From the IMG/VR virus record IMGVR_UViG_3300044800_000405, positions 1-50,456 of that record: 50,456 nt of DNA. The stretch is one strand, 5' to 3'. The notes under the pieces were generated by a model. It was not told where the DNA came from and searched no databases. It was given only the letters and a program-made list of their open reading frames with translations. Every line of letters begins with the position of its first letter. The first letter of the stretch is position 1. Below, in pieces: positions 3,663-39,424 of this stretch. The stretch comes from a virus (Duplodnaviria; Caudoviricetes). Both the position numbers and the translations under genes were made by a program.

Positions 3663-3692
3663 TGTTTCAGCCTTTAGCCTTTAGCCTTTAGC
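3662..3692 (+). repeat. (TTTAGCC)n heptamer array; related copies near 8626, 9345, 12364, 15236, 15421, 15729, 17087, 22790, 26505
   Basis: Tandem TTTAGCC/TTCAGCC units read directly, all on + strand, mostly intergenic. Confidence 0.9.
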
Positions 3693-3695
3693 ATT

Positions 3696-5138
3696 ATGAC
3701 CTGTGTCCTTCCCGTCCATGCCGGCGATGGTTTTCTCCTGCTCAACCTCCTGCGCTGGCTCAAACAGCTAGGGCCATGTCCCGGCCATTCCGCGCTTATA
3801 GTGGCGGATTGTTCTTTGTCCTGGCCCGTCGCCCAAACCGCCGTCGGCCTGGCCAAAGATATTTTTGATGACACCGTCTTCATCACCAACCACCAGACCG
3901 TTTCCGGCTGGGTGCCCGGCAGCAATTCTCTCTGGCAAACCGCCGCCCAACATTGTTCCACACAGAACATTGATGGCTGGTTGTGGCTTGAACCAGACGC
4001 CGTCCCCCTCCGCCCCGGCTGGCTCGATGTCTTGGATGGGGCGTGGCAGAATACCGTCGCCGATTTTCTCTCCGCCCTTTACCACTGCACCCGTGCCGAT
4101 TGTCCTGCCATTATGATGACCGGCATTGCTGTTTATCCCGCCAACGCCATTGATTTTTTCAAGCCTGTGGCCGAAGCGTTCGACATTCAACTCTCCCGCT
4201 CCGCCATTGACTACGTTCAGGATACGCCACTCATCCATCAATTTTGGGGTCAGCCCGGTTTGGCGCCCACTTTTCGTAATACCCTAAACGGCGCACCCCG
4301 GCACGCCTTCACCCTGTTCCAGCTTGATCCCGCCGCCGTCATTTTCCACCGCAACAAAGACGGCTCCCTCATCGAACTTTTACGTTCCCAACTTCCTCAA
4401 CCCTCAACCCTCAACCCTCAACTATTGGTCGTCCTGCCCGTTTGTTCCAAAGACTCCGACCTCATGCTCAAGTGTTTGGGGTGGATTGCCCAACTCGATG
4501 GCCAGAACCCATTCGACTGTCTCATTGCGCACGATTCCACCCTGGGTCCCGTCCGCCTGGCGCCCCTGCGCGCGGCGGCCAGCCGCGCCTTCCGCACCGT
4601 GCAGGAATTCACCTATCCCCGCCCCGTGCGCGAGTCTCACCCGGATGCCGCCAACCATGCCTTCGCCTGCACCGCCCGGCACATCGCCCAAGTCCTGCAC
4701 CGCCCCTGGCTGTGGTTTGAGGCCGACTGTGTTCCGCTTAAACCCAACTGGCTGCCCACGCTTGATCTGGAGTACCGCAACTGTGGCCAGCCCGTCATGG
4801 GGCCGGGCGTGCCGGACCTGGGCCATTTCAACGGCACCTCCATTTACCCGGCGGACTTCCCCGCGCTTTCACCCCGCGCCATGAGCGTGCCCCTGGGCCA
4901 GGCCTTTGACACCTACATGACGCCCGACCTCGTCAACCGCTCGCACGATTGTTCCCGGCTGTGGTGTCACGCCTGGGGCCTGGTGGATGGCCGTCTTCAT
5001 CCGCACACCGGCCCGGCCCCTCACTTTTCCTCCACCCTTTGCGTGGACCAATGGCTCCCGCCGGACGCCGTCATTTTCCACCGCTGCAAAGATGGCTCGC
5101 TCATAGACCAGCTTCGTGCTAAAAAAACGCAGCCATGA
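3696..5138 (+). CDS. Putative glycosyltransferase-like protein with two tandem homologous domains
   Basis: Internal duplication: WLWLEPDAVPLRPGWL / WLWFEADCVPLKPNWL and AVIFHRNKDGSLI / AVIFHRCKDGSLI; ExD metal-binding-like motif. Confidence 0.6.
   Translation: MTCVLPVHAGDGFLLLNLLRWLKQLGPCPGHSALIVADCSLSWPVAQTAVGLAKDIFDDTVFITNHQTVSGWVPGSNSLWQTAAQHCSTQNIDGWLWLEPDAVPLRPGWLDVLDGAWQNTVADFLSALYHCTRADCPAIMMTGIAVYPANAIDFFKPVAEAFDIQLSRSAIDYVQDTPLIHQFWGQPGLAPTFRNTLNGAPRHAFTLFQLDPAAVIFHRNKDGSLIELLRSQLPQPSTLNPQLLVVLPVCSKDSDLMLKCLGWIAQLDGQNPFDCLIAHDSTLGPVRLAPLRAAASRAFRTVQEFTYPRPVRESHPDAANHAFACTARHIAQVLHRPWLWFEADCVPLKPNWLPTLDLEYRNCGQPVMGPGVPDLGHFNGTSIYPADFPALSPRAMSVPLGQAFDTYMTPDLVNRSHDCSRLWCHAWGLVDGRLHPHTGPAPHFSSTLCVDQWLPPDAVIFHRCKDGSLIDQLRAKKTQP
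4396..4422 (+). repeat. (CTCAACC)n heptamer array; related copies near 5484, 8921, 15931, 16010, 17331, 18144, 26213, 39399
   Basis: Tandem CTCAACC units, often inside ORFs (PSTLNPQ peptides). Confidence 0.9.
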
Positions 5139-5977
5139 ACACTGAAATTTTTCTTTGCACCCACGCCAAGGATTTCCCCTGGCTCAAATACTGTTTGCGC
5201 TCCATCGCCAAATTTGCCACCGGCTTTGCCGGGGTTACCATCGTCGTGCCCCTCGCTGACTTCCTCTTGCTGCAAACCCTCGTGGAGGAAACCGTGCCCG
5301 ATTTGGGCTTTCACGTTCAATGTTTCACGGGGGAGGAATGGCCCGGCCTGGGCATGCTCTGGCACATGAATGAAATTATGCACGCCGATTGTTATTGTCC
5401 CGGCGCCGATTTCATCGCCCATCTGGACCCAGACTGTGTTTTCACCGCTCCCGTCAGCCCGGCCACCTTCATGGTTTCTTCTCCCTCAACCCTCAACCAT
5501 CAACCCTCAACCCTCCAGCAGCAGCCCATCCTGCGTTTTGAAAAATTCTCTATCATCGGCCTGCGCCACCCCCCCGTCCTGCGCTGGCAGGAATGCACCG
5601 CCCGCTGCCTGCCCTTCCCCGTCGAGAACGAGACCATGCGTTGCCACCCATCGGTCTATCACCGCGCCCTCTACGCCGCCGCGCGCAATCAAATGGTGCT
5701 CAAGACCGGCCAGCCCGTGCCGGCTTACATCCGCTCCTGCCAGAACACTTTTCCCCAGGGCTTTTGTGAGTTCGTCACCCTGGGCAACGTGGCCCTCCAA
5801 CTGTTTCGCCACCTGTATTTCCCCATCGAACAATTGAACGACCACGTCATCCCGTCCAATCATCTGCAACAGTTTTGGTCCCATGGCGCGCTGGATCAGC
5901 CGCAACCAATTTTTGTGCTCGGCGAACAGAAAGTCGTCGTCCCCATCGAGATGATTAAACAACTCGGCCTCGCATGA
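5135..5977 (+). CDS. Putative GT-A-fold glycosyltransferase-like protein
   Basis: IFLCTHAKDFPWLKYCLRSI start; FIAHLDPDCVF DxD motif. Confidence 0.6.
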   Translation: MNTEIFLCTHAKDFPWLKYCLRSIAKFATGFAGVTIVVPLADFLLLQTLVEETVPDLGFHVQCFTGEEWPGLGMLWHMNEIMHADCYCPGADFIAHLDPDCVFTAPVSPATFMVSSPSTLNHQPSTLQQQPILRFEKFSIIGLRHPPVLRWQECTARCLPFPVENETMRCHPSVYHRALYAAARNQMVLKTGQPVPAYIRSCQNTFPQGFCEFVTLGNVALQLFRHLYFPIEQLNDHVIPSNHLQQFWSHGALDQPQPIFVLGEQKVVVPIEMIKQLGLA

Positions 5978-6579
5978 CTCTGGACAACATCGGCATCATG
6001 TACGGGTGTGATAAAGCCAGTCCCTGGCACAATTACTGTCGCACTTACTCCCACTTCTTTGACCCCTTGCGGGACAGGCCCGTTTTTTTGCTGGAACAAG
6101 GCGTGGCCCAAGGCGCGTCCATCCGCATGTGGTTGGATTATTTCGACCGTCCCCTCTCCCGGTTTTACGGCTTGGATACCAACCCCAACGCTTATCCTTC
6201 CGTTGGCCGTTACCAGTTCATCCAGCAAGACCAGCGCACCGTGGTCTCCCTCCCGCTGCCCGCCTTCGACATCATCATAGACGACGCCAGCCATCATGCC
6301 GAGGATATGCGTCCGGCCTTTGAGGCGCTCTGGCCCAACGTCCGGCCCGGCGGCTTCTACTGCATTGAGGATGTCGCTGTGTTTTGGGACCCGGATTTTG
6401 CCGCCACCGCTCCCGGCCAAAAATGGCTTCTGGACCTGCTGGGCGAGGTAAACCATCACGGCCTTGATTACGTCGGCAAGCCCAAGCCCGTCCCCCAGGT
6501 GCAACTCACGCCCTTGGCCGCCTCCATTGCTTTCATGCACTGCACGCGCGGCCTGGTCATCCTCAAAAAGAAAACATGA
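5974..6579 (+). CDS. Class I SAM-dependent (sugar O-)methyltransferase
   Basis: CDKA...HNY, LLEQGVAQGASIRMW, FDIIIDDASH, VRPGGFYCIEDV motifs. Confidence 0.85.
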   Translation: MTLDNIGIMYGCDKASPWHNYCRTYSHFFDPLRDRPVFLLEQGVAQGASIRMWLDYFDRPLSRFYGLDTNPNAYPSVGRYQFIQQDQRTVVSLPLPAFDIIIDDASHHAEDMRPAFEALWPNVRPGGFYCIEDVAVFWDPDFAATAPGQKWLLDLLGEVNHHGLDYVGKPKPVPQVQLTPLAASIAFMHCTRGLVILKKKT

Positions 6580-15217: not shown

Positions 15218-15269
15218 ATCCCACACCATCATGTTTCAGCCCTTAGCCTTTAGCCTTTAGCCTTTTTTT

Positions 15270-15761: not shown

Positions 15762-17072
15762 ATGGACGCCCCTACCACCACCGCACCCGCACCCAGCACC
15801 CAGCCCAACCCGCCCGGCCCCAACATGGCCGAATCCTTTGCCGGCTTCGATGCCCTCGTGGCCGCCCCCGAATCTTCTCCCTCGCCCCCCGCAGGGGGAG
15901 AGGGCCGGGGTGAGGGGCAGGCATCCGACGCTCAACCCTCAACCACCAACCCGCAACCACCAACCAAGCCCGCCCCTGACACCAAACCGACAGACGAAGG
16001 GAAGCCCCCCTCAACCCTCAACCCTCAACCCTCAACCAAGCCCGCCAAAGCCGCCACCCTGCGCGAAGAACTCGACCGCACCCGCACCGAAGCCGCCGAC
16101 TGGCGCGGCAAGTACGAGAAATTGCAGGCCGACCTTTCCAAGCCCAAACCAGACCCGGAAAAGGATCAGCTCCTCAAAGACCGCGAGACCTGGAACAAAT
16201 CCCGCGCCGATCTTGAAAATGAACTCAAGTTCGCCAACTACGAGCGCAGCCAGGAATACAAAGACAAGTACCAGCAGCCATTTTTGAAAGCCTACGAGTC
16301 CGCCCAAAAACTCGTCAGCGCCCTTACCGTCAAGGAACCGGATCAGAAAGACCAGTACGGCGAAGTCACCGAGCCGGGCAAAACCCGCAAGGGCACGGAG
16401 GCAGATTGGGACGCCCTCATGGCCATCACCGACGAGAACGCCGCCAGCGAATTCATTGCCGAACATTTTGGCCACTCCGCCGCCCGCGTCACCGTCCTGC
16501 GCGACAAGGTCCTGGACCTTCACGGCCAGATGCGCGCCGCGGTCGAGGACTTCCGCAAGCAGGCCGGCGAGCGCGAGACTCAAATGCGGGGCACCCTGGA
16601 AAAACAGCAGAAAGAAATCAGCACCCGCTGGCACGCGGCCAACGCCCATGCCGCCCAAAAGTATCCGCAGTATTTCGCGCCCGACCCTGCCGACCCCAAG
16701 GCCACCGCCCTGTGGGAGGCCGGCACGCGCCTCACGGACCTCGCCTTTGGCGTGCTGGACCCTGCCGATGTTTCCAAGCTCCCGCCCGCCATCCAGTCCA
16801 AGTTTGTCAACGGCCAGTTGCCGCTCGCTGACCGCACCTTGTTGCACAGCGCCATCCGCAACCGCGCCGCCGCCTACGACCGCCTCGTTTACAAGCTCGC
16901 CATGAGCGAGGCCGCCAAAAAGGAACTGGCGGACAAACTGGCCGGCTTTGAAAAGTCCGAGCCGGGCCGGGGCCAGGCCCGCAAGGTCGAAACTTCCGGC
17001 AAGCCAGGCACGCCCTCCACCCTGGACGAGGTGGATTCCGCCTTCGACCAACTCGCCGCTGCCAACGGCTAA
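15762..17072 (+). CDS. Putative capsid scaffolding protein
   Basis: Pro-rich disordered N-terminus, long coiled coil, 436 aa. Confidence 0.5.
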   Translation: MDAPTTTAPAPSTQPNPPGPNMAESFAGFDALVAAPESSPSPPAGGEGRGEGQASDAQPSTTNPQPPTKPAPDTKPTDEGKPPSTLNPQPSTKPAKAATLREELDRTRTEAADWRGKYEKLQADLSKPKPDPEKDQLLKDRETWNKSRADLENELKFANYERSQEYKDKYQQPFLKAYESAQKLVSALTVKEPDQKDQYGEVTEPGKTRKGTEADWDALMAITDENAASEFIAEHFGHSAARVTVLRDKVLDLHGQMRAAVEDFRKQAGERETQMRGTLEKQQKEISTRWHAANAHAAQKYPQYFAPDPADPKATALWEAGTRLTDLAFGVLDPADVSKLPPAIQSKFVNGQLPLADRTLLHSAIRNRAAAYDRLVYKLAMSEAAKKELADKLAGFEKSEPGRGQARKVETSGKPGTPSTLDEVDSAFDQLAAANG

Positions 17073-17121
17073 AACCAACCATTATGTTTCAGCCTTTAGC
17101 CTTTAGCCTTTAGCCCTTTTT

Positions 17122-17370
17122 ATGAACCACCAGGAACAATTCCAAAATCGCATCACCGATGCCGTCAACAAAGCCGCTGCCAACGCGGTCCATCCCGCCA
17201 TCATTTACATGGTCCTGGGCGGCATTCAACAGGACGTGCTTAATTCCGTCCGCGCCGCCAACCGCGCCGCCGCCGCCCCTCCCTCGCCCCCCGCAGGGGA
17301 AGATGGCCGGGGTGAGGGGCGGGAAAATTCTCAACCCTCAACTCTCGACTCTCCACCCCCAGCCAATTAA
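17122..17370 (+). CDS. Hypothetical protein (C-terminus built from REP and heptamer repeats)
   Basis: 82-aa ORF after T-rich leader. Confidence 0.55.
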   Translation: MNHQEQFQNRITDAVNKAAANAVHPAIIYMVLGGIQQDVLNSVRAANRAAAAPPSPPAGEDGRGEGRENSQPSTLDSPPPAN

Positions 17371-17371
17371 A

Positions 17372-17854
17372 ATGCGCCCCGCCACCGGCAGTTTTTGGTA
17401 TCGCCTGTTGTTCCCCAAACGATCCCGAATCATTTCCGCCTACATTCACTCCATGAATGTTGCTTTGGCAGACACCTATGATTACGTTGTGGGAGATAAA
17501 CCTTGGCCGAATGGGTTGCAAACATTGTTGAATGTCGGTGCGGCGGACCTGTCCGCCAAAGCGTTCAACGATGTTTGCATCCGCTTGGTTGACTTTTTTA
17601 AGAATCCACACACCGACAATGGGTTGTCAGGTTCTTGGCAGGAAAACTCGCCCTATAAAAAATCCACGACCTCCTTTTTTATTCCCTGGGAAACCGACCC
17701 CAATCCTCTGTATCCCATGCTGCCAGACAAGCAGGTGCTGCCCTTTCTGCGCTACTGCAAGAAATACCAGTTGAGCATCACCCCTCTTTACAACGCAGCC
17801 TTTGAAGCCAGCCGCTTTCTCTCAAACTTGCCAACTGTTTGTTATGAACGATAA
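17372..17854 (+). CDS. Hypothetical protein, lower GC
   Basis: ATG at 17372 directly after upstream stop. Confidence 0.55.
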   Translation: MRPATGSFWYRLLFPKRSRIISAYIHSMNVALADTYDYVVGDKPWPNGLQTLLNVGAADLSAKAFNDVCIRLVDFFKNPHTDNGLSGSWQENSPYKKSTTSFFIPWETDPNPLYPMLPDKQVLPFLRYCKKYQLSITPLYNAAFEASRFLSNLPTVCYER

Positions 17855-18179
17855 ATGCCCCCACCTGATCCCCCTGCTTGACCGTGTCATCATCGAGCCG
17901 ATTGCCGGCCCGGAAAAAATCGGCGCCATCTTCGTGCCCGACCAGGCGCGGGAGAAGCCGGATACCGGGCGTGTGCTCGCGCGCGGCCCTGGCCGCGTGT
18001 CCGAGCACGGCACCCGCATTCCCATGTCCGTTGAGGTGGGCGACCAGGTGGTTTTCAACCGCTACTCCGCCAGTCAAATCCGGGTGGCTGGGCGCGACCT
18101 CTGCCTGGTCCACGAGTCCGATATTAACTGCATCGTAAAAACCCCCTCCACCCTCAACCCTCAACCCTCAACCAAATAA
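17844..18179 (+). CDS. groES: Co-chaperonin GroES (Cpn10)
   Basis: LIPLLDRVIIEP...GAIFVPDQAREKPDTGRVLARGPGR....G.RIPMSVEVGDQVVFNRYS...LVHESDI. Confidence 0.92.
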   Translation: MNDKCPHLIPLLDRVIIEPIAGPEKIGAIFVPDQAREKPDTGRVLARGPGRVSEHGTRIPMSVEVGDQVVFNRYSASQIRVAGRDLCLVHESDINCIVKTPSTLNPQPSTK

Positions 18180-18180
18180 C

Positions 18181-18471
18181 ATGCACTACCGAAACGGCAA
18201 AGAAGCGCACGATGGCGACCCCGTCATTGGCCAGACCTACAAAAACTCCGGCGTCGTCATTGCCGGCAAAATTCACAGCATCAATCCCGGTCAAAACACC
18301 TGCAACTGCACCGTGGCCGTTCCCGTCATGGGCGGTGTCGAGCACCTGTCCTGCCGCAACGTGGATGAATTCTACTCCGCTGCCGATGCCTTCGCCGCCA
18401 TGGAGCAGGCCCTGCGCTGCCCGGCGGTGGAAGTCCCGCCTCCGCCCGCGCCAACTCCCAAATTCTTGTAG
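18181..18471 (+). CDS. Hypothetical protein
   Basis: MHYRNGKEAHDGD.V...G.....PG..TCN. Confidence 0.65.
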   Translation: MHYRNGKEAHDGDPVIGQTYKNSGVVIAGKIHSINPGQNTCNCTVAVPVMGGVEHLSCRNVDEFYSAADAFAAMEQALRCPAVEVPPPPAPTPKFL

Positions 18472-18481
18472 CCGCATGTGG

Positions 18482-18500
18482 CACAGACCTCTGGTCTGTG
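18482..18500. promoter_or_regulatory. Perfect palindrome (operator-like) within putative tRNA promoter
   Basis: CACAGACC-TCT-GGTCTGTG; TGGCAC-17 nt-TATCTT overlaps it. Confidence 0.55.
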
Positions 18501-18522
18501 TTATCTTTCGCAAATTCATCGG

Positions 18523-18597
18523 TGCGGGGTAGAACAGTGGTAGTTCGGCAGCCTCATAAACTGCTTGTCGGTGGTTCGATTCCACCCTCCGCAACCA
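18523..18597 (+). tRNA. tRNA with CAT anticodon (Met, initiator-like body), CCA encoded
   Basis: Cloverleaf: TGCGGGG/CTCCGCA acceptor, GAAC/GTTC D-stem, CTCATAA loop, GGTGG-TTCGATT-CCACC T-arm, ACCA end. Confidence 0.92.
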
Positions 18598-18610
18598 CTT
18601 TATTTCCGAC

Positions 18611-18638
18611 TTGACCCTGTCTGCTGGTGGTGTAAATT
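18611..18638 (+). promoter_or_regulatory. Promoter of the Cas12f-like gene with GCTGGTGG in spacer
   Basis: TTGACC 18611-18616, GCTGGTGG 18623-18630, TAAATT 18633-18638. Confidence 0.6.
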
Positions 18639-18647
18639 CCCGCCACC

Positions 18648-20141
18648 ATGAGAATGTCCCTAAGAAAGCATCGCCGTGTGCGGGCCAGCGCCGCCAAAAC
18701 TCAACGCCGCTACATGCGGCTGGCGGCGAAGGTGGTTAAAAATGTTTTTGTCCCGGCCCAAAAAGGAACCCCCCTGGGACCACCCGCCCCACTGGTCCAG
18801 AAACTTCCCCTGCCCTCGTCCGTCGCGCCTTCCGTCCCTGCCGTCCCTTCGGCCACCCCCGCGCCCGGAAAAAGTTTGGTTTGCAGCCAGTGCGGCACCG
18901 CCCCCAAAACCCCCCTTATCGGCCGTCTCCCGCGCGGGTGGAAAAGGATGGAGGCCGAGGTCGTCTGCCCCAAATGCTGGCATGACAAGTTTTTCCTCCG
19001 CGCCATCACCTTTGCCGTGTCCGGCCCCATCGTAAAAGAGGACTGGCCGGCCTTGCGTGAAGCCTTGCAGGCAGGCTGGGCGCAATCCACCCGGCTCTGC
19101 AACTGGGCCGTTACCGAACTCGCCAAGGCCGATGTCACCCGCCAGCCAGACATGGCCAAACTGCCCAAGTTCGCCCTGCCGTATTTATACCCGCCCGCGC
19201 GCAAGTTGTTCCCCGGCCTGGCCAGCCAAACGGTCGTGGCCCTGCTCAACACCGTCCAGCGCAAGTATGCCCAGACCCGCTTTGAACGCATCTGGCTTGG
19301 GAATGTCTCCCTGCAAAGCTACAAGTACCCCGTGCCCGTGCCCGTGCCCGCTGCCGGCTATTCCTGCGAACTGATGAAGCGCGGGCCGGACCGCGTGCCC
19401 GTTGTCCATCTGCGCATCGGCGACCAGCGTTTTTCCTTGTTATTGCGTGGCGGCGTTGAATGGGCGCGCCAGTTACATGACTTCACCCAAGTGGTGCATG
19501 GCCACGGTTTGCAGTGCGAGGCCGCCATTGGCCGGCGGCGCGTGACGGACTCCGATACCTGGAACGGCGTGGCCGAGCGTCAGGCCGGCGGCGGCCAGCG
19601 CCAGCATTACCGCATCATGCTCAAGTTGGTTGCGTGGCTGCCCCGCAAACCTGTTGGCAAAAAACAGAAACCCAAAAACCTCACCTTGAATACCGGCCAA
19701 GACTTTTTCTGGCAGGCTGTTCTGGATGGCGGCCAGCCTTGGATTTTACATGCCGATCATGTCCGGGGCTGGGTGTTAAGCCATGCCCACCGGCTGCAAC
19801 ATTGGAGTGACGACCAGAAGTTTGAGCACCGGCGCAACGCGCGGGCGCGGCAGCCCCTTAACGAACACCGCGCAGCGGCGGCGCGCAAGCAAAACGACCG
19901 GCTCGATACTTGGTGTCATACTGCCGCTGCGCTTTTCACCCAATGGTGCTCCCGCCAGCGTGTAACACGGGTGCAATATGATGAAACCGGCGGCCATTTT
20001 CTTGAAAGTTTTCCTTGGCACCGGCTTAAAACCCTGTTACAAGAGAAACTGAACGTGGCCGGAATTGACTTTGCCGAAGTTGCGAGCGCCACAGTGCCGG
20101 AGGAATCCAGCACCAGCGCTCGCCAAAAGACAAAGTCCTGA
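18648..20141 (+). CDS. Cas12f-like type V effector, predicted nuclease-dead, with N-terminal zinc finger
   Basis: By-eye alignment to AsCas12f1 motifs (GNVSLQSYKYPVP ~ GDMSIPSYKRDIP; KNLTLNTG ~ KIMGIDLG; RVQYDET ~ TIQMEDL; FPWHRLKTLLQEKLNVAGI ~ WTYYDLQQKIIYKAEEAGI); adjacent CRISPR array. Confidence 0.8.
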   Translation: MRMSLRKHRRVRASAAKTQRRYMRLAAKVVKNVFVPAQKGTPLGPPAPLVQKLPLPSSVAPSVPAVPSATPAPGKSLVCSQCGTAPKTPLIGRLPRGWKRMEAEVVCPKCWHDKFFLRAITFAVSGPIVKEDWPALREALQAGWAQSTRLCNWAVTELAKADVTRQPDMAKLPKFALPYLYPPARKLFPGLASQTVVALLNTVQRKYAQTRFERIWLGNVSLQSYKYPVPVPVPAAGYSCELMKRGPDRVPVVHLRIGDQRFSLLLRGGVEWARQLHDFTQVVHGHGLQCEAAIGRRRVTDSDTWNGVAERQAGGGQRQHYRIMLKLVAWLPRKPVGKKQKPKNLTLNTGQDFFWQAVLDGGQPWILHADHVRGWVLSHAHRLQHWSDDQKFEHRRNARARQPLNEHRAAAARKQNDRLDTWCHTAAALFTQWCSRQRVTRVQYDETGGHFLESFPWHRLKTLLQEKLNVAGIDFAEVASATVPEESSTSARQKTKS

Positions 20142-20260
20142 ACGGCAGTATTTTGAGTGACCGATACACTCAGCGCGGTTGCGCCTTGGTACGCTTGCCG
20201 GCCCTGGCTCTCGCGGAACACCGTTTAAGTAGCGGGGATTACGCTGTTTACAGCCCGGCC
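20082..20260 (+). promoter_or_regulatory. Putative CRISPR leader / scaffold RNA region
   Basis: Lies between effector core and repeat 1; inverted repeat GCGAGCGC (20082-20089)/GCGCTCGC (20116-20123); degenerate repeats are at the opposite end of the array. Confidence 0.5.
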
Positions 20261-20869
20261 CCCGCAGCGACTAAAATTAAAGCTGTCGGCTTCGGGGGTT
20301 CCGTGTCAAACCGTTGCTTCTTTTGCCAGAAAGCCCGCAGCGACTAAAATTAAAGCTGTCGGCTTCGGGCGATGTCTTGTAGCGAAAGAGTTTAACACCC
20401 GACTCCCGCAGCGACTAAAATTAAAGCTGTCGGCTTCGGGAGTGTCCTGAAATAATTCCACGAGGTCGAAAGCCCCCCGCAGCGACTAAAATTAAAGCTG
20501 TCGGCTTCGGCTTCGCACCGCGAAATCAAGAAGCTGGACAAGCCCCCCGCAGCGACTAAAATTAAAGCTGTCGGCTTCGGGCGCACGCCGTTTGTGGAGA
20601 GCCGAACTGAATTCCTGCCCGCAGCGACTAAAATTAAAGCTGTCGGCTTCGGGGTGAAACGCGATGTTGACACCGGCAACAAACTTATTCCCGCAGCGAC
20701 TAAAATTAAAGCGGTCAGCTTCGGGTCGCCACCAGTAGAGAGTTTTGGAGAGGAAGAAATCCCGCAGCGACTAAAATTAAAGCGGTCGCCTTCGGGTTGC
20801 CTGTTGGGTTGACAGGATGACCACAACCCGCCACCCGCAGCGACTAAAATTAAAGCGGTCAGCTTCGGG
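20261..20869 (+). CRISPR. CRISPR array: 9 x 36-bp repeats (CCCGCAGCGACTAAAATTAAAGCTGTCGGCTTCGGG), 8 unique spacers of 34-37 bp
   Basis: Repeats start at 20261, 20334, 20405, 20476, 20546, 20618, 20690, 20761, 20834; repeat 4 ends in C; repeats 7-9 carry substitutions; orientation inferred. Confidence 0.97.
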
Positions 20870-20886
20870 CTTACAATCACAGATTC

Positions 20887-22728
20887 CTAAAACGTCAGCG
20901 CATGTTGCTTCCGTTGCTCCCGCAACTTGTCCTGCCGTTTCATAAACCAGTCCCAGGTGGAATTCTCCGCCGGCACATCCGCGCCCAGGCGTTTGATCTT
21001 GAACCCGCGTTGCCGCGCCCCTTCCAGCGCAATCGCCAGCCAGTCAAACAGGTCCGGGCTTTTGCCCATCCGCTCCTTGAGTTCATCCTTCGGCTCCACT
21101 TCAATCTTGTCGCCCGCCACCGTCTTGTACTCGCGCCAGCAGCCCTCGGCCATCACGTCCTCCGGCAACTCTCGCATCTGGCCGCTCTCTATCGTCTCCC
21201 GCACGCTAAACCACATCTCCGTTATGAACTTGCTGTAATGTTCCTCGCACCGTTTCAGCCGGCGCCGCCCGTCCTTTTCAGCTACCCATAAATCCCAACG
21301 CACGGGCCGCGTCGTCGTCCGCGCCCCGGCGTCCACCGGCACCGGCGGGTTAAAGCCAAACTTCCGCGCAAAGGCAAACCCCACCGTCCCCTTGCCGAAT
21401 GAATCGTAAAAACAATTGTCCGGCGCTATCCCGTTGGCTTCCAAATCCTCCTTCACCAGGTCCGCTATCTGGTCTTCCGGCGGCAGGGCCGGGTTCACAA
21501 TTATTTTCAATATGCGCGGCGGGTTCACCCGCAAAATCTGCGTGCCCTCGGCACTCTCCCCAAACTCTATCCATCCGCCCACGCAGCGGTCCCCGCCGCC
21601 ATAGGCCGGGTCCACGCTGTAAATGCGCGGGCGCGGTTTGCCCGCCCACACCGCGCGCTCGTGCGCCCCGTGCAGCCGGCACAATTGCCGGGTTATCACG
21701 CGCGAATGTTCCAGCCCTATCCGCATCCGGCCCATGATTTGCGTCTCATACTCCGGCGAGTTTTTCCCGTAATCATGCGCGATAATCCGCTCATAATCGT
21801 GCCCAATCAGTCCCTTGTATTGGTCTTGTGGCTGGTCAAAGTTCGGACTGTCCAGCCCAATCAAATTCACGCACACCCCGCCCAGCAGTTTGATGGGCCA
21901 CACCTGCGTCTTTTCCAGCCCGTCCACCGCCGGCCAGCCCTCCAGCGGCTCGCCCACAATGCCCAGTTGATCGTTCGGGTCGTGGCGCGGATTCCCGCTC
22001 CCAATCACCTTCAACCCGCCCGCGCCCGTGTTGCTCCGCATGTTTGGCAGGCAGCCCAGGAACGTCGGCGCCATGAACTGCAATTCGTCGCACTGAAACC
22101 GGAACCGTTTTTGTTTTATCCCCGCAAAGTTCCCCAGCCCCACCCATTGCTTGCCCACATAGCACGCCTTGCAGAAAATTCCCTTGCGCAGGTCCCGCGC
22201 GTCCTCGCTGTCGGCGGCGCGGTCGTCCGTCGCAATGCGCTGTTTGTATTCAATCAAGTGTCCCGCCAGCCAGGAATAATTTTCCCGGCCCGCCTTCCAT
22301 AAACTTTTCATCTCGCCCCACACGGCGTCTTCCAGTTTGTCCTTGGTCGTGCTGCTCACCAGCACCGCCGTTTCATCCGGGTAACACCAGTAATCAATCA
22401 GGCTGAACTCGCTCGCGTGGCTCGTCTTCTGGCTCGAAGCCGCCCCCATCAAAATCGTGATGCTGTTCTTGATTATCTCCCGGTAAATCAACTCGCTCCA
22501 ACGGTGGCAGTAACGGTCCGGCCAGATCAATTTGCGCGCGTTCAAATAATGCCGGAGCAACTCGCCTTCCCCCTCAGACTGTGGACTGTGGACTGTGGCC
22601 TCTGGACTGTGGACTGTGGACTGTGGACTCAAGACTTTTTTCCACGTCCTCCGTATCATGTTAAACTCCACGGCCAGCGCATCCGGTTTGCGCTGCCATT
22701 TCTGCCCGTATTGGTCCTCGTAAATCAT
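20887..22728 (-). CDS. Terminase large subunit
   Basis: Walker A-like MGAASSQKT, Walker B FQCDE, GSGNP, RNase H-like SVDPAYGGGDRCV and KSPDLFD. Confidence 0.85.
   Translation of the reverse strand: MIYEDQYGQKWQRKPDALAVEFNMIRRTWKKVLSPQSTVHSPEATVHSPQSEGEGELLRHYLNARKLIWPDRYCHRWSELIYREIIKNSITILMGAASSQKTSHASEFSLIDYWCYPDETAVLVSSTTKDKLEDAVWGEMKSLWKAGRENYSWLAGHLIEYKQRIATDDRAADSEDARDLRKGIFCKACYVGKQWVGLGNFAGIKQKRFRFQCDELQFMAPTFLGCLPNMRSNTGAGGLKVIGSGNPRHDPNDQLGIVGEPLEGWPAVDGLEKTQVWPIKLLGGVCVNLIGLDSPNFDQPQDQYKGLIGHDYERIIAHDYGKNSPEYETQIMGRMRIGLEHSRVITRQLCRLHGAHERAVWAGKPRPRIYSVDPAYGGGDRCVGGWIEFGESAEGTQILRVNPPRILKIIVNPALPPEDQIADLVKEDLEANGIAPDNCFYDSFGKGTVGFAFARKFGFNPPVPVDAGARTTTRPVRWDLWVAEKDGRRRLKRCEEHYSKFITEMWFSVRETIESGQMRELPEDVMAEGCWREYKTVAGDKIEVEPKDELKERMGKSPDLFDWLAIALEGARQRGFKIKRLGADVPAENSTWDWFMKRQDKLREQRKQHALTF
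22576..22629 (-). repeat. (CCACAGT)n heptamer array in frame within terL
   Basis: GGACTGT units on +; encodes SPQSTVHSPEATVHSPQS. Confidence 0.85.
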
Positions 22729-22876
22729 GGCTGGCTTCCCCCTCTCCTGGGGGAGAGGGCCGGGGTGAGGGCGGTCGTAAACATTTTTTTCAGCCTTTAG
22801 CCTTTAGCCTTTAGCCTTCTCCTACCCTGCCCCTTGCGCATTACATTTTCAACGGTAACGTTAAAAATAAAGCATT

Positions 22877-23902
22877 ATGAGTATTCCAAGCGATTGTTGC
22901 TCTCCCTGTCCTTCTGTCACCGCCGTCAACGTCCCCGGAGTCCCCGGCGCCAACGGCAATAACGGCATCAACGCCTTCACCACCACTTTGGGCGTCATTA
23001 CCCTGCCCATTCCCCTGGCCAATGTCGGTCCCATTGCTGTTGCCAATTCCAGTTGGCTGACCCCCGGCCAGAGCGTCGTCGCCAGCAGCGATGCCTCCCA
23101 TGTCGGCACCTTCCGGGTCGTATCCGTCTCCACCGGCTTTGTCACCCTGCAATGGCTGGCTGCCACCGGAGATTCCGCGCAGGCCACGCCCATTCCCATT
23201 GGTGCCACCCTTTCCCCGTCCGGCGCTCCTGGCCTTTCCAGTTTTGGGGTTCTAGCCGTCACCTGTTTTGCCACTGCCGGCGCCTTTGCCTTCACGCCCA
23301 ACCCCAATGCCACTGCCCTTTATGTCGAGTGCATCGGGGCCGGCGGCTCCGGCGGCGGCGGCGGCTCCACCGCTGGTGATGCTTCCCTCGGCTCCGGCGG
23401 CGGCGGCGGCGCTTATTCCGCCGTGTTCCTCACCCCCATTTTGGCCACTTACTCCGGCATCGTGGGCGCGGGCGGTGCGGCCCCTGCCCCCGGCAACAAT
23501 CCCGGCATCCTTGGCGGCTTTACCAGTTTCATCGGCAACGCCTCCAATCTTTGTCTGGCCAACGGCGGCGCAGCGGGCGCGGGCGGCGGCGCCCCAGGCA
23601 CCACAGCCCTGTTAATTCTCGGCGGCACGGGCGCCTCCGTGGCCGGCGCTGTCGGTGATCTCGTGATGGATGGCGACGACGGCGGCATTAGCAATCGCGT
23701 CTCCGGCACGGTGGGCAGTTCGGGCCGGGGCGGCAGCGGGCCTTTTTCCGGCGGTTCCTCCAGCCTCATCGCCCAGGGCAACGGCAATACGGGCGGCCAG
23801 TACGGCGGCGGCGGGTCCGGCGGCAATACCCTGAATGGCGGCGCGGCCACCTCCGGCGGCGCCGGCGCCGATGGCCTGGTCCGCATCTGGCAGCTTGGTT
23901 GA
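22877..23902 (+). CDS. Glycine-rich tail fibre-like virion protein
   Basis: VECIGAGGSGGGG...GGGGGAYS...YGGGGSGG...GADGLVRIW Gly-rich domain. Confidence 0.75.
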   Translation: MSIPSDCCSPCPSVTAVNVPGVPGANGNNGINAFTTTLGVITLPIPLANVGPIAVANSSWLTPGQSVVASSDASHVGTFRVVSVSTGFVTLQWLAATGDSAQATPIPIGATLSPSGAPGLSSFGVLAVTCFATAGAFAFTPNPNATALYVECIGAGGSGGGGGSTAGDASLGSGGGGGAYSAVFLTPILATYSGIVGAGGAAPAPGNNPGILGGFTSFIGNASNLCLANGGAAGAGGGAPGTTALLILGGTGASVAGAVGDLVMDGDDGGISNRVSGTVGSSGRGGSGPFSGGSSSLIAQGNGNTGGQYGGGGSGGNTLNGGAATSGGAGADGLVRIWQLG

Positions 23903-23916
23903 TTCAAGAGCCTCCC

Positions 23917-26445
23917 ATGCCCAACCCCGTTTACGACTTCATTGGCAGTTTCAAGGATGGCATGAATTCGGGCATTGACCCCCTGCTCCTGCCCAAGACC
24001 CAACTCGCGTTTGCCTCCAACGGCACCCTGCGCGGCGACTTTTTCCAAACCCGGCCCGCCACGCAACAACTTGACCTGGCGTATGTCGCGCCATCTGTTC
24101 AAACCGATTTCCAAACCGGCCTGTTTCAGGGCGCCGCTTATTACAAGCCAGATGCCGGCCCGGAGGCCCTCGCCTTGCAAATCGGTGGCTGCCAATTCCT
24201 GGCCACCCCGGATTCCAGCGGCAATGCCCTGGTGCAGGAAATCACCATCCCCGGAGACCCTGATTCCGCCGCCCAGCCCCAAGCCTGGATTTGCCAGGCG
24301 GAAAACTTTCTCATCTTCAACGATGGTCTGGACCTCCCGGTGTTTTACGATGGCGCCACCAGCCGGCGGTCCCTGGGCGCCAGCCAGCCCCTGGGCACAG
24401 TCAACGCCGCCGCTTCCGCGCCGGCCATCGGCAGCACGACGGCCTTGCAACTTTTAGCCGACTACACCGGGCCGCTCAATCAGCCCATCTTCATTGGCAC
24501 GGCCATTTATGTTGTCACTGCGGTCGGCGGCTCAGGGGTCGCCTACTCTGTCGAACTGCAAACCCTGTATGACCCGGACACCAGTCACCCCGCCGGGACC
24601 CCCTTGTATCGGAAGGCCGCCCAAATTGGCGAGGCACAGGCGGTGTTCAATCCCATCATTCCCAATCAGCCGGTGGGCGTCGTCACCTTTGAACTCGTCG
24701 GCACCACCATTCCCACCAATGTCGGTGTGGGAGATTCCATTACCCTGTCCAACCCCACCGTTCCCCCCTCAGACCCCAGCTTGCAAACCATCAAAACCAA
24801 TGTGTTTGCCATCAACAAGCCGTCCCGCACCCGCATGGCCCTGGTCTTTTTCAGTTCCGCCGCGCGCACTGCCGCCACCACCGGCCTCTGGCTGGCCTCC
24901 CTTACCGGCGGCGGCGCCGTCACACAACAGGGAACCGTGGCCGTGGGTTTTTCTGTGCAAACCAGCGGCACAGACATCACCGTGGACCTTGCCTCCAATT
25001 TCAAAGGCTATGTGGGACAGATTATTTGGATCGGCAACGGCCAGTACCAAATCGTTTCCATCACCAACCTTGCCCCCATTCCCGACCTCAACATCACCGT
25101 CGAAAATATAACCGATACCCTCGGCACCAAGCTGCTCAACCTGCCCTTGACCACCCTGCCCGAATTGCCCGCCGGGCGTTCCCTGTGTTACGGCCAGGGC
25201 CGGGTGTGGGAGTCCATGATTGATGGCTTGAGTTTTCTGGGTGGAGACATCGTCAATGGCACCTCCGGCTCGCCGGGCTACAATTACCGCGATGCCGTCC
25301 TGCGCGTTACAGAAAATGACTCCATTGCCGGCGGCGGTTTGTTCCGCGTGCCCGGCAGCGCGGGCGACATCAAGGCCATGCAGTTTTGCGCCCTGCTGGA
25401 TGCCTCCCTGGGCCAGGGTCCGCTCCAGATTTTCACCCCCAACTGTGTATTCAGTTGCCAGGCCCCGGTGGACCGTTCCACCTGGGCCGCGCTCACCAAT
25501 CCCATCCTCACCCAATCGCTCATCGGCGCCGGCGGCGTGGCGCAAAATTCCGTGTCCCTCGCCAATGGCGACATTCTCTTTCGCTCCTCGGATAGCCAGA
25601 TTCGGTCCCTGCTCATGGCGCGGCTGGATTTCAACCGCTGGTCCAACACCCCCGTCAGCCGCGAAATGGCCCGCGTTTTGGACCAGGAAGATTCCACCCT
25701 GCTGGCTTACTCCACCTCTGCGGTTTTCGACAACCGCTTTTTGATGGGCGCCGGGTTGACTTCTTCCAACCGGGGCGTTTTTTCCCCATCCCTCATCGCC
25801 CTGAACTTTGACCCCGTCAGTTCCCTGCGCGGGGCCGATACCACCATTTATGACGGCCAATGGTCCGGCCTGAACGTGTTGCAACTCGTCAGTGGTTTTT
25901 TCAGCGGCGTGTCCCGTTGCTTTGCCGTTTGTCTCTCCACCGATCTCACCCAGATTGAAATTCACGAAATTTTGCCCTCGTCCGGCCCGGCGTCTTTGAC
26001 CCTCGATGATGGCGTCACAGCCATCACCGCTGCCTTTGAATCGCCCGTGCTGGATTTTGGCGACCGCCGCTCCGGCGCCCGCACCTACAAGCGCCTCCAG
26101 TACGGTGAAATCTTTGTGGATAACATCACCGGCCCCGTCACGTTCCAGGCTTTTTACAAACCCGACCAATGGCCCAATTGGGTCCCGTGGTATTCGTGGA
26201 CCCAGTCCTACTCTCAACCCTCAACTCTCAACCCTCAACTGCCTTCTGATCCGGGCTTTCGTCCCCGCGTCGGTCTGCCCATGCCGGACGGCACCGTGTT
26301 TGACACCGTGAACAACCGTCCCTTGCGCGAAGGGTTCACTTTCCAATTCCAACTCGTCGCCACCGGCTCCTTCCGTTTTCTGGGCGCGCGTTTTTCCGCC
26401 GACCTCATCCCTCAGCCCGAATTCGCCGTCCCCGTTTCTCCCTGA
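23917..26445 (+). CDS. Putative tail tubular B / DNA stabilisation protein (T7 gp12 / P22 gp10-like)
   Basis: About 840 aa, beta-rich; F.DGMNS..DP start; precedes adaptor and ejection genes. Confidence 0.6.
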   Translation: MPNPVYDFIGSFKDGMNSGIDPLLLPKTQLAFASNGTLRGDFFQTRPATQQLDLAYVAPSVQTDFQTGLFQGAAYYKPDAGPEALALQIGGCQFLATPDSSGNALVQEITIPGDPDSAAQPQAWICQAENFLIFNDGLDLPVFYDGATSRRSLGASQPLGTVNAAASAPAIGSTTALQLLADYTGPLNQPIFIGTAIYVVTAVGGSGVAYSVELQTLYDPDTSHPAGTPLYRKAAQIGEAQAVFNPIIPNQPVGVVTFELVGTTIPTNVGVGDSITLSNPTVPPSDPSLQTIKTNVFAINKPSRTRMALVFFSSAARTAATTGLWLASLTGGGAVTQQGTVAVGFSVQTSGTDITVDLASNFKGYVGQIIWIGNGQYQIVSITNLAPIPDLNITVENITDTLGTKLLNLPLTTLPELPAGRSLCYGQGRVWESMIDGLSFLGGDIVNGTSGSPGYNYRDAVLRVTENDSIAGGGLFRVPGSAGDIKAMQFCALLDASLGQGPLQIFTPNCVFSCQAPVDRSTWAALTNPILTQSLIGAGGVAQNSVSLANGDILFRSSDSQIRSLLMARLDFNRWSNTPVSREMARVLDQEDSTLLAYSTSAVFDNRFLMGAGLTSSNRGVFSPSLIALNFDPVSSLRGADTTIYDGQWSGLNVLQLVSGFFSGVSRCFAVCLSTDLTQIEIHEILPSSGPASLTLDDGVTAITAAFESPVLDFGDRRSGARTYKRLQYGEIFVDNITGPVTFQAFYKPDQWPNWVPWYSWTQSYSQPSTLNPQLPSDPGFRPRVGLPMPDGTVFDTVNNRPLREGFTFQFQLVATGSFRFLGARFSADLIPQPEFAVPVSP

Positions 26446-26540
26446 CCACTCTGCCCCTTGCCAAACCGTATTTTTACCACGACAAGATATTATGACCATT
26501 TTGTTTCAGCCTTTAGCCTTTAGCCTTTAGCCTTTTTTTT

Positions 26541-39391: not shown

Positions 39392-39424
39392 CCACGCTCT
39401 CAACCCTCAACCCTCAACCACCCG

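Follow-up and report, generated by a model that had tools for sequence, protein, structure and literature searches.

We describe a phage-borne, nuclease-dead relative of Cas12f that carries a conserved finger-like module ahead of its first WED strand and lies beside a clustered regularly interspaced short palindromic repeat (CRISPR) array. The protein is encoded in the linear viral record IMGVR_UViG_3300044800_000405, all 50,456 bp of which were analysed (hereafter the window; CheckV completeness estimate 93%), by an open reading frame (ORF) on the plus strand at 18648-20141 that counts 497 residues from its first ATG (protein-coding part, 18648-20138). The module is a four-cysteine, treble-clef-like putative zinc finger of residues 77-113 (18876-18986, plus strand), delimited by conservation, structural alignments and a domain model, and its characteristic residues are C79, C82, the loop RLPRGWKR (93-100), C107, C110 and W111. 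Judged from its sequence, the effector appears to be of a known kind, the dead Cas12f and TldR proteins, and what appears to be new is the N-terminal finger on a phage-borne, array-linked form. The explanation that we favour, at a little better than even odds, is that a short form of the protein is guided by the array to DNA and acts there as a roadblock to transcription, with the finger serving as a clamp on nucleic acid.

The finger is widespread in the family, well beyond what would arise by chance. In a MAFFT alignment of 174 homologs, on which the cysteine and residue counts given here are based, all four cysteines are retained in 141 proteins. A concerted degenerate pattern occurs in nine (C-[T/S]-S-[G/A] in eight, CSLN in one), single proteins read CACC and CCCI, seven are gapped at one or more of the four sites, and in 15 the called protein begins past the column of the first cysteine. 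Several of the last group begin inside the finger, evidently as a result of mis-called starts. The automated call for the window gene itself (P0001, 397 residues, starting at M101, position 18948) splits the finger between its cysteine pairs, and the automated start of P0004, from a sister lineage, likewise cuts it in half. The loop is similarly conserved, with W98 present in 154 homologs, P95 in 146 and G97 in 136. In the nine degenerate homologs, three of the four ligands have been swapped together (Cxx[T/S] ... Sxx[G/A]) with the LPRGW(K/R) loop retained. Concerted loss of ligands is what a true metal site shows, and here the part under selection would be the basic-aromatic loop. This pattern marks the loop as the probable working part of the finger. 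The C79xxC82...C107xxC110 motif had been proposed as an N-terminal finger in a preliminary description of this DNA, and that proposal is borne out: homologs have the finger, and the start codon must lie upstream of it, not downstream.

Structural comparison places the finger before the N termini of solved relatives. Alignments of an AlphaFold 2 (AF2) model to solved Cas12f, dCas12f and TnpB chains start at model residues 109-119, opposite chain residues 0-13. Since the first residues of the solved chains thus align past the finger, it is a real extra module of about 38 residues, fused directly to the first WED strand. In the AF2 model the second CxxC begins a helix after a beta hairpin (strands 99-101 and 104-106, helix from 108). 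Folded alone from 15 sequences, at a predicted local distance difference test score (pLDDT) of 79.5, the finger again has its second CxxC at the start of a helix, preceded by a knuckle and a beta hairpin. The predicted layout is that of a treble clef, whose four cysteines would bind zinc.

Comparison of the isolated finger with 48,161 chains using VIA returned the ClpX zinc-binding domain as best neighbour (Z 3.2), followed by CsfB, LIM and GATA fingers, and none of the chains reached Z 5. The domain search that the preliminary description had called for gave faint generic matches and none at cut-off: Pfam returned only sub-threshold ribbon and treble-clef families for 15 finger segments, with zf_Tbcl_2 faint in 5 of the 15. 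A search of the ESM Atlas with residues 75-128 produced no usable match. The fold class is therefore ordinary and gives no hint of the ligand. Two other identities were considered and rejected. Relocation of the TNB ribbon is unsupported: the 25 families listed, of 26 with weak matches to the 15 segments, do not include PF07282, and the architecture differs. The internal zinc finger in the N-terminal lobe of Un1Cas12f1 is ruled out as a counterpart, as residue 3 of that chain already aligns to model residue 113. Nuclease-active relatives bearing the finger were sought and none was found; a second homolog search with a profile gained two fragments only.

The rest of the protein, residues 114-497 plus the stop codon (18987-20141, plus strand), is a Cas12f-like WED-REC-RuvC core, as assessed with Foldseek, VIA, a profile search of the PDB and alignment column counts. 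The AF2 model, built from 21 homologs, has a mean pLDDT of 81, with the core mostly above 90. With this model, Foldseek found AsCas12f (E 7e-16) and the nuclease-dead dCas12f 9n9c (E 1e-13). VIA-align matched AsCas12f (8j1j_B) at Z 19.7 and a root-mean-square deviation (rmsd) of 7.9 over 312 aligned residues, and dCas12f (9n9c_A) at Z 17.2 and rmsd 14.5 over 326, with chain residues 1-365 on model residues 109-478. Un1Cas12f1 (Z 14.4), ISDra2 TnpB (Z 13.1) and Cas12m2 (Z 12.7) were more distant. A family profile searched against the PDB likewise recovered OsCas12f (E 1.6e-8), SpCas12f1 (E 3.8e-6) and dCas12f (E 0.0026). Single-sequence searches were nearly blank, with a PDB match to Cas12f1 at E 0.65 and a sub-threshold TNB fragment (E 0.096, profile positions 1-23) as the only Pfam match, and the whole protein had no match in NCBIfam or PHROGs.

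The core has lost its catalytic parts. The RuvC-I aspartate (GVDMG of OsCas12f) aligns to N348 (19689-19691), in a column occupied by Arg in 83, Lys in 21, Ser in 19 and Thr in 16 of the homologs and with no acidic residue among the eight commonest. The RuvC-II glutamate aligns to D445 (19980-19982), which is Asp in 122 of 174. The protein ends about 50 residues past this position, so that RuvC-III is absent. The C-terminal tails lack a CxxC motif in all 174 homologs and have a median length of 17 residues past residue 478, showing that the TNB zinc ribbon is missing as well; the point of truncation is that of dCas12f. With the RuvC-I aspartate replaced and both RuvC-III and TNB missing, the effector is therefore nuclease-dead, which confirms the earlier reading of a dead Cas12f-like core without its C-terminal zinc ribbon.

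Immediately 3' of the gene lie a structured RNA scaffold and a CRISPR array. The scaffold (20118-20260, plus strand) starts within the 3' end of the gene and runs right up to the first repeat. The 120-165 nt leading up to that repeat align across eight loci, and RNAalifold predicts 31 pairs for them, 23 with compensatory changes; a search of Rfam gave no family match. The array (20261-20869, plus strand) comprises nine 36-nt repeats separated by eight spacers of 34-37 nt, and its last three repeats are degenerate, which places the leader on the gene side. Arrays of 36-37-nt repeats stand 3' of the gene in 10 of 11 related loci. The repeats fold as end-to-end hairpins (-11.8 kcal/mol, z -2.3 in the window), with stem sequences that differ between loci. 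No anti-repeat was found in window positions 17001-24000, and leader-repeat duplex z-scores were near 0 in seven of eight loci. The covariation suggests that the effector has a tracr-like or omega-RNA-like scaffold. The presence of such a scaffold between the gene and the first repeat argues against the earlier idea that the finger replaces the trans-activating CRISPR RNA (tracrRNA), which now seems unlikely.

Spacers of related phages point to binding in preference to cutting. A perfect self-targeting spacer was found in two of ten related phage genomes tested. One spacer of locus L003 (about 2472-2509) matches its own genome over 40 nt at 100% (L021 1501-1540; G001:C1:5244-5283, minus strand), in a gene for an N6/N4 DNA methylase (PF01555, E 1.2e-24), where it falls within codons 14-26. 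One of locus L006 (4375-4411) matches over 39 nt at 100% (L037 1501-1539; G008:C1:29941-29979, plus strand), near the 3' end of a 166-residue ORF in an apparent structural module, about 95 nt before the next gene. Perfect self-targets would be incompatible with an enzyme that cuts, and these spacers therefore fit binding without cutting. They suggest that the phages may use the system to tune genes of their own, one of them a DNA methylase.

In the mechanism that we propose, the scaffold RNA and the hairpin-repeat array would together provide the guide, and the effector would bind DNA without cutting it, most likely repressing its targets as a transcription roadblock. The finger would be a small nucleic-acid clamp on the side of the WED domain proximal to the protospacer-adjacent motif (PAM), where, by gripping either the guide handle or the DNA duplex, it may stabilise an effector now without TNB and RuvC-III. 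The WED domain of published Cas12 structures holds the guide handle and the PAM-side duplex. A clamp is favoured because the finger is fused to the first WED strand, because its conserved face is basic and aromatic, and because TNB has been lost. Several results weigh against this picture. The structural neighbours of the isolated finger are generic and include protein-binding modules, namely the ClpX zinc-binding domain and CsfB. Several homologs (for example P0094, P0024, P0152 and P0171) seem to be finger-less, and the finger may be dispensable in some lineages. On the side of repression, no self-target was found in eight of the ten genomes. The spacers of the window matched nothing searched: they have no match in the window itself (best local scores 10-14 for 34-37-nt spacers), the array region has none in GenBank phages, and 24-mers of spacers 1 and 2 have 0 matches in IMG/VR.

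The favoured explanation and its rivals are not all mutually exclusive, and two other roles for the finger deserve weighing against that of a clamp. It could be a protein-docking module through which a host factor (for example RNA polymerase, a protease adaptor or a sigma factor) is brought to the site specified by the guide, in which case the system could activate or rewire transcription and not just block it. Protein-binding fingers are among the top structural neighbours (ClpX zinc-binding domain, 2ds5, Z 3.2; CsfB, an inhibitor of sigma-G, 5n7y, Z 3.1; LIM and RING), although at these Z values the neighbours carry no specific signal. The known precedent, dCas12f acting with sigma-E, lends the idea some weight, but the extra docking domain of that published system sits on sigma-E and not on dCas12f (PMC13472631). 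The preliminary description named contact with RNA polymerase as one role of the appendage, and the evidence points to contact with neither RNA polymerase nor sigma. Among the 59 ORFs of the window, none of those near the gene encodes a sigma factor, and the sole sigma-like match is a 77-residue GerE/Sigma70_r4 protein 24 kb away. The window and 12 of 13 related loci have neither a sigma gene nor any other conserved partner gene next to the effector, and an extracytoplasmic function (ECF) sigma gene lies within 3 kb of the effector homolog in 1 of the 13. That locus, on a contig of a metagenome-assembled genome (MAG) labelled Gemmataceae, has the ECF sigma gene (L019 34-870, minus strand) and the effector homolog about 1.3 kb apart, and is the only sigma association seen. 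Both self-targets, moreover, fall inside genes and not at promoter-less gene fronts. Taken together, docking is improbable as the role of the finger. Activation instead of repression is possible, and no result favours it. A fuller version, in which the finger docks the host transcription machinery or another host factor at guided sites and the array becomes a set of programmable on/off switches, would come as a considerable surprise. If true, it would provide switches for the genes of the phage and perhaps of its host, a virus-borne counterpart of dCas12f-sigmaE that does without a sigma gene.

The finger might alternatively be a dimerisation or purely structural element, pairing protomers or bracing the WED domain after the C-terminal truncation. 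The top neighbour of the isolated finger, the ClpX zinc-binding domain, is presumably a dimerisation domain, and one subclade has swapped three zinc ligands together and retained the fold-defining tryptophans, as a structural module could. Cas12f and dCas12f are dimers on one guide, according to the dCas12f report (PMC13472631), yet the solved forms of both dimerise with no finger of this kind, and a near-invariant, surface-type basic loop (RLPxGWKR) exceeds what a brace needs. A homodimer prediction for two copies of residues 75-497 scored 0.09 and 0.12 (mark 0.42) and speaks neither for nor against a dimer. We regard this role as slightly less probable even than docking, and return to the clamp as the preferred reading.

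By analogy, the effector may work like dCas12f, TldR or Cas12m. Nuclease-dead relatives of TnpB and Cas12f have recently been shown to act as natural RNA-guided transcription factors. The Bacteroidota dCas12f (PDB 9n9c/9n9m; Hoffmann et al., Nature 2026, PMC13472631) shares the Cas12f-like fold and the truncation of RuvC-III and TNB with the window protein, but its residue 1 aligns past the window finger, and it has no N-terminal finger. The dCas12f systems studied are encoded on chromosomes, in operons with rpoE, and work with single chimeric guides, whereas the window effector is phage-borne, is accompanied by a nine-repeat array and scaffold and has no adjacent sigma gene. Sequence likeness is also weak (profile E 0.0026). 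Of what defines the dCas12f-sigmaE systems, the window thus has a truncated, RuvC-dead protein and lacks an operonic ECF sigma (rpoE). In one sentence, the same report speaks of 'a distinct cluster' of dCas12f that lies beside CRISPR arrays, with a proposed repressor role (PMC13472631).

The Cas12f nucleases of type V-F (OsCas12f 9nzq, AsCas12f 8j12/8j1j, SpCas12f1 9i8y) are the best structural and profile matches (Z 19.7, E 1.6e-8) and resemble the window protein in small size and CRISPR association. The bilobed fold and the adjacent array are present in the window, whereas the intact D-E-D triad and the TNB ribbon are not: the RuvC-I aspartate is replaced, and RuvC-III and TNB are missing. 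The window protein also has an extra finger, and no anti-repeat or tracrRNA was detected in 17001-24000, although the scaffold RNA does adjoin the array. TldR (Wiegand et al., 10.1101/2023.11.30.569447), in the part of that report available, is likewise built on a TnpB-family scaffold, has lost the C-terminal zinc-finger/RuvC part, is often phage-borne and represses through RNA-guided DNA binding, and its guide scaffold overlaps the 3' end of the gene, as in the window. It is described there with a single fixed guide and no CRISPR array, and that portion of the text does not mention an N-terminal finger, whereas the window has a multi-spacer array; the structural match to TnpB (Z 12.7-13.1) is also weaker than that to Cas12f. 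Cas12m (V-M) and other non-cutting type V effectors block transcription under the guidance of CRISPR RNA (crRNA), without cleavage, and occur on mobile elements (PMC11656645, PMC12669027). Cas12m is larger, retains its C-terminal part and is plasmid-enriched, and it is structurally farther from the window protein (Z 12.3-12.7).

The start codon bears on what the finger is attached to. The preliminary description counted a basic arm and a Pro-rich linker as parts of the module, and asked for the start codon to be confirmed. All of the elements that it listed can be read in the conceptual translation of 18648-20138. A start upstream of the finger is upheld; the ATG at 18648 is doubtful, and the arm and linker have fared poorly. 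Residues 1-76 of the long ORF (18648-18875, plus strand), comprising a basic helix (1-31) and a Pro-rich stretch that includes the linker PSSVAPSVPAVP (56-67), are strain-specific and of doubtful translation. They are found elsewhere only in P0176, an identical copy from another contig, and no like extension occurs among the 174 homologs. Wherever a homolog has the first cysteine, it is preceded by at most 25 residues in 149 of 152 cases, and the median is 7. Proteins of the nearest lineages, at 66-82% identity, begin MKTEVTKLVC, MKNEVVKLIC, MKTPITPIEILC, MAEKKLIC and MSKSKPKENLEQTKPTAQKLIC, and in the closest relatives the ATG stands 5-21 residues before the first cysteine. An ATG lies 2-13 codons before this cysteine in 15 of 17 related loci, six of which have an in-frame stop within six codons 5' of that ATG. 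In locus L012 only TTG or GTG is usable as a start, which indicates that non-ATG starts occur in the family.

The window has no ATG from codon 23 to codon 101, and where relatives have Met it has a non-start codon (68 or 70, depending on the aligned relative). The candidate start suggested by related loci is the TTG at codon 77 (18876-18878, plus strand), two codons before C79, which would give M-V-C-S-Q-C; such an M-V-C start resembles the M-K-C, M-L-C and M-I-C starts of relatives. Open frames upstream of the finger-proximal ATG extend for 27-81 codons in five distinct related loci (L001 and L002 counting as one sequence) and are therefore common in the family. P0002, with 82% core identity, has a 106-residue upstream extension unlike that of the window and an internal Met where its sister proteins start. 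In addition, residues 32-73 have pLDDT below 50 in the AF2 model, and G+C at third codon positions is 0.645 in 18648-18875 against 0.724 in the core. Comparison of these sequences makes it most likely, with odds moderately better than even, that residues 1-76 are an open upstream frame in GC-rich DNA and that translation starts at TTG 18876. The finger belongs to a large unnamed protein family, whereas the protein itself probably includes neither the basic arm nor the Pro linker.

A number of observations count the other way. The ATG at 18648 is the first start of the open frame, four codons past a stop. A sigma-70-like promoter match, TTGACC-16-TAAATT (18611-18638, plus strand; a consensus match only, 9 of 12 positions), ends 10 nt before it and would suit a near-leaderless long form; a transcript from just past this site would have a leader of about 230 nt to TTG 18876, and TTG is a weak start. 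Frame 0 of 18648-18875 has the best codon score of the six frames, at 3.5 bits, a value in the range of overlap, below which 12% of true coding windows fall and above which 11.5% of off-frame windows lie. The 497-residue form was also called by one gene caller on a second contig, as an identical protein. A real long form would mean that the ancestral finger-side ATG was lost, as the non-start codon at the relatives' Met position would fit, and that translation moved to ATG 18648 (or 18654 or 18714). This lineage would thereby have gained a basic helix of its own, carried on a flexible tether rich in Pro, which would lend non-specific affinity for RNA or DNA, and AF2 does predict a helix at residues 2-32 (pLDDT 60-81). 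Set against this are the lack of residues 1-76 in the homologs, the unrelated extension of P0002 and the lower third-position G+C. The chance of an open stretch of 72 codons is about 13% at the G+C of the window, as estimated from base composition, and similar stretches occur in relatives; the Arg/Pro/Ala/Ser-rich composition is that of off-frame GC-rich DNA and resembles other spurious ORFs of the window. We consider the long form a serious candidate, though clearly the less likely of the two.

Other lines of evidence do not separate the two starts. Shine-Dalgarno-like motifs precede 8 of 38 putative starts of the phage and are thus too rare for ribosome-site motifs to decide. Nine public runs are listed, mostly labelled peat metagenome and with no RNA data set among them. 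Within 18450-20184, contigs from three of the runs (X2, X4 and X5) match the window without a difference over all that they cover, so that they offer no natural variation with which to test 18648-18875; one diverged relative in the public runs aligns only from 18930 onward. In searches for the upstream DNA of 82%-identical relatives, a metagenome scan gave a C-terminal fragment only (L016) and a viral scan with P0003 gave none. For annotation, the 397-residue automated call from M101 halves the finger, and the 497-residue call probably over-extends the protein.

The family is large and, in IMG/VR, viral in setting. A library-wide phmmer search returned 859 representative clusters at E <=1e-3 and 374 at <=1e-30. 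All 15 of the 15 IMG/VR loci encoding a relative are on viral contigs, and the family is absent from GenBank phages. In the literature searched we found no N-terminal finger on a dead Cas12f and no such phage clade, although supplementary material, such as Extended Data Fig. 1 of PMC13472631 or the V-U* list in PMC10691335, may cover them. In the text of PMC13472631, the words 'zinc', 'N-terminal' and 'viral' occur 0 times and 'phage' once, in the reference list. To the known dead effectors this clade adds carriage by phages, a scaffold RNA joined to an array of several spacers, and a family-defining N-terminal finger that solved relatives lack. A self-contained DNA binder of about 420 residues with a small add-on domain could also be of interest as a compact scaffold for CRISPR interference (CRISPRi).

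The surroundings of the effector are variable. A tRNA-Met gene (CAT anticodon; 18523-18597, plus strand; ARAGORN, and Rfam tRNA at 59.3 bits, E 1.1e-11) lies directly 5' of the gene and is noted as context only. A terminase-like ORF on the opposite strand converges on the array, and a Cpn10/GroES homolog (17802-18176, plus strand; PF00166, E 4e-22) is among the genes near the effector. In related loci the neighbours differ and include integrase, ParB, helicase and terminase genes. In the provirus record L005, the effector and array form a cassette between an ORF with the RecD2 N-terminal OB/HHH region and an ORF with a RecD-like helicase core (1873-2901 and 5082-6461), as if inserted into a helicase gene or between its halves. 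Elsewhere, the window encodes a homolog of ribosomal protein L20 (8859-9326, plus strand; PF00453, E 2.5e-36).

Two tandem heptamers recur along the window. TTAGCCT occurs in tandem at about ten sites (21 matches to the 13-mer against 0.05 expected; for example 3667-3693, 15243-15262, 17089-17115, 22790-22816 and 26506-26532, all on the plus strand), mostly just 5' of gene starts, and may serve the phage as a promoter or other regulatory element. CCTCAAC occurs at about eight sites (19 matches to the 15-mer against 0.01 expected; for example 4395-4423, 16009-16037, 18145-18173 and 39398-39419, all on the plus strand). Some of its copies lie within ORFs, where they are read as PSTLNPQ repeats, and others just before gene starts.

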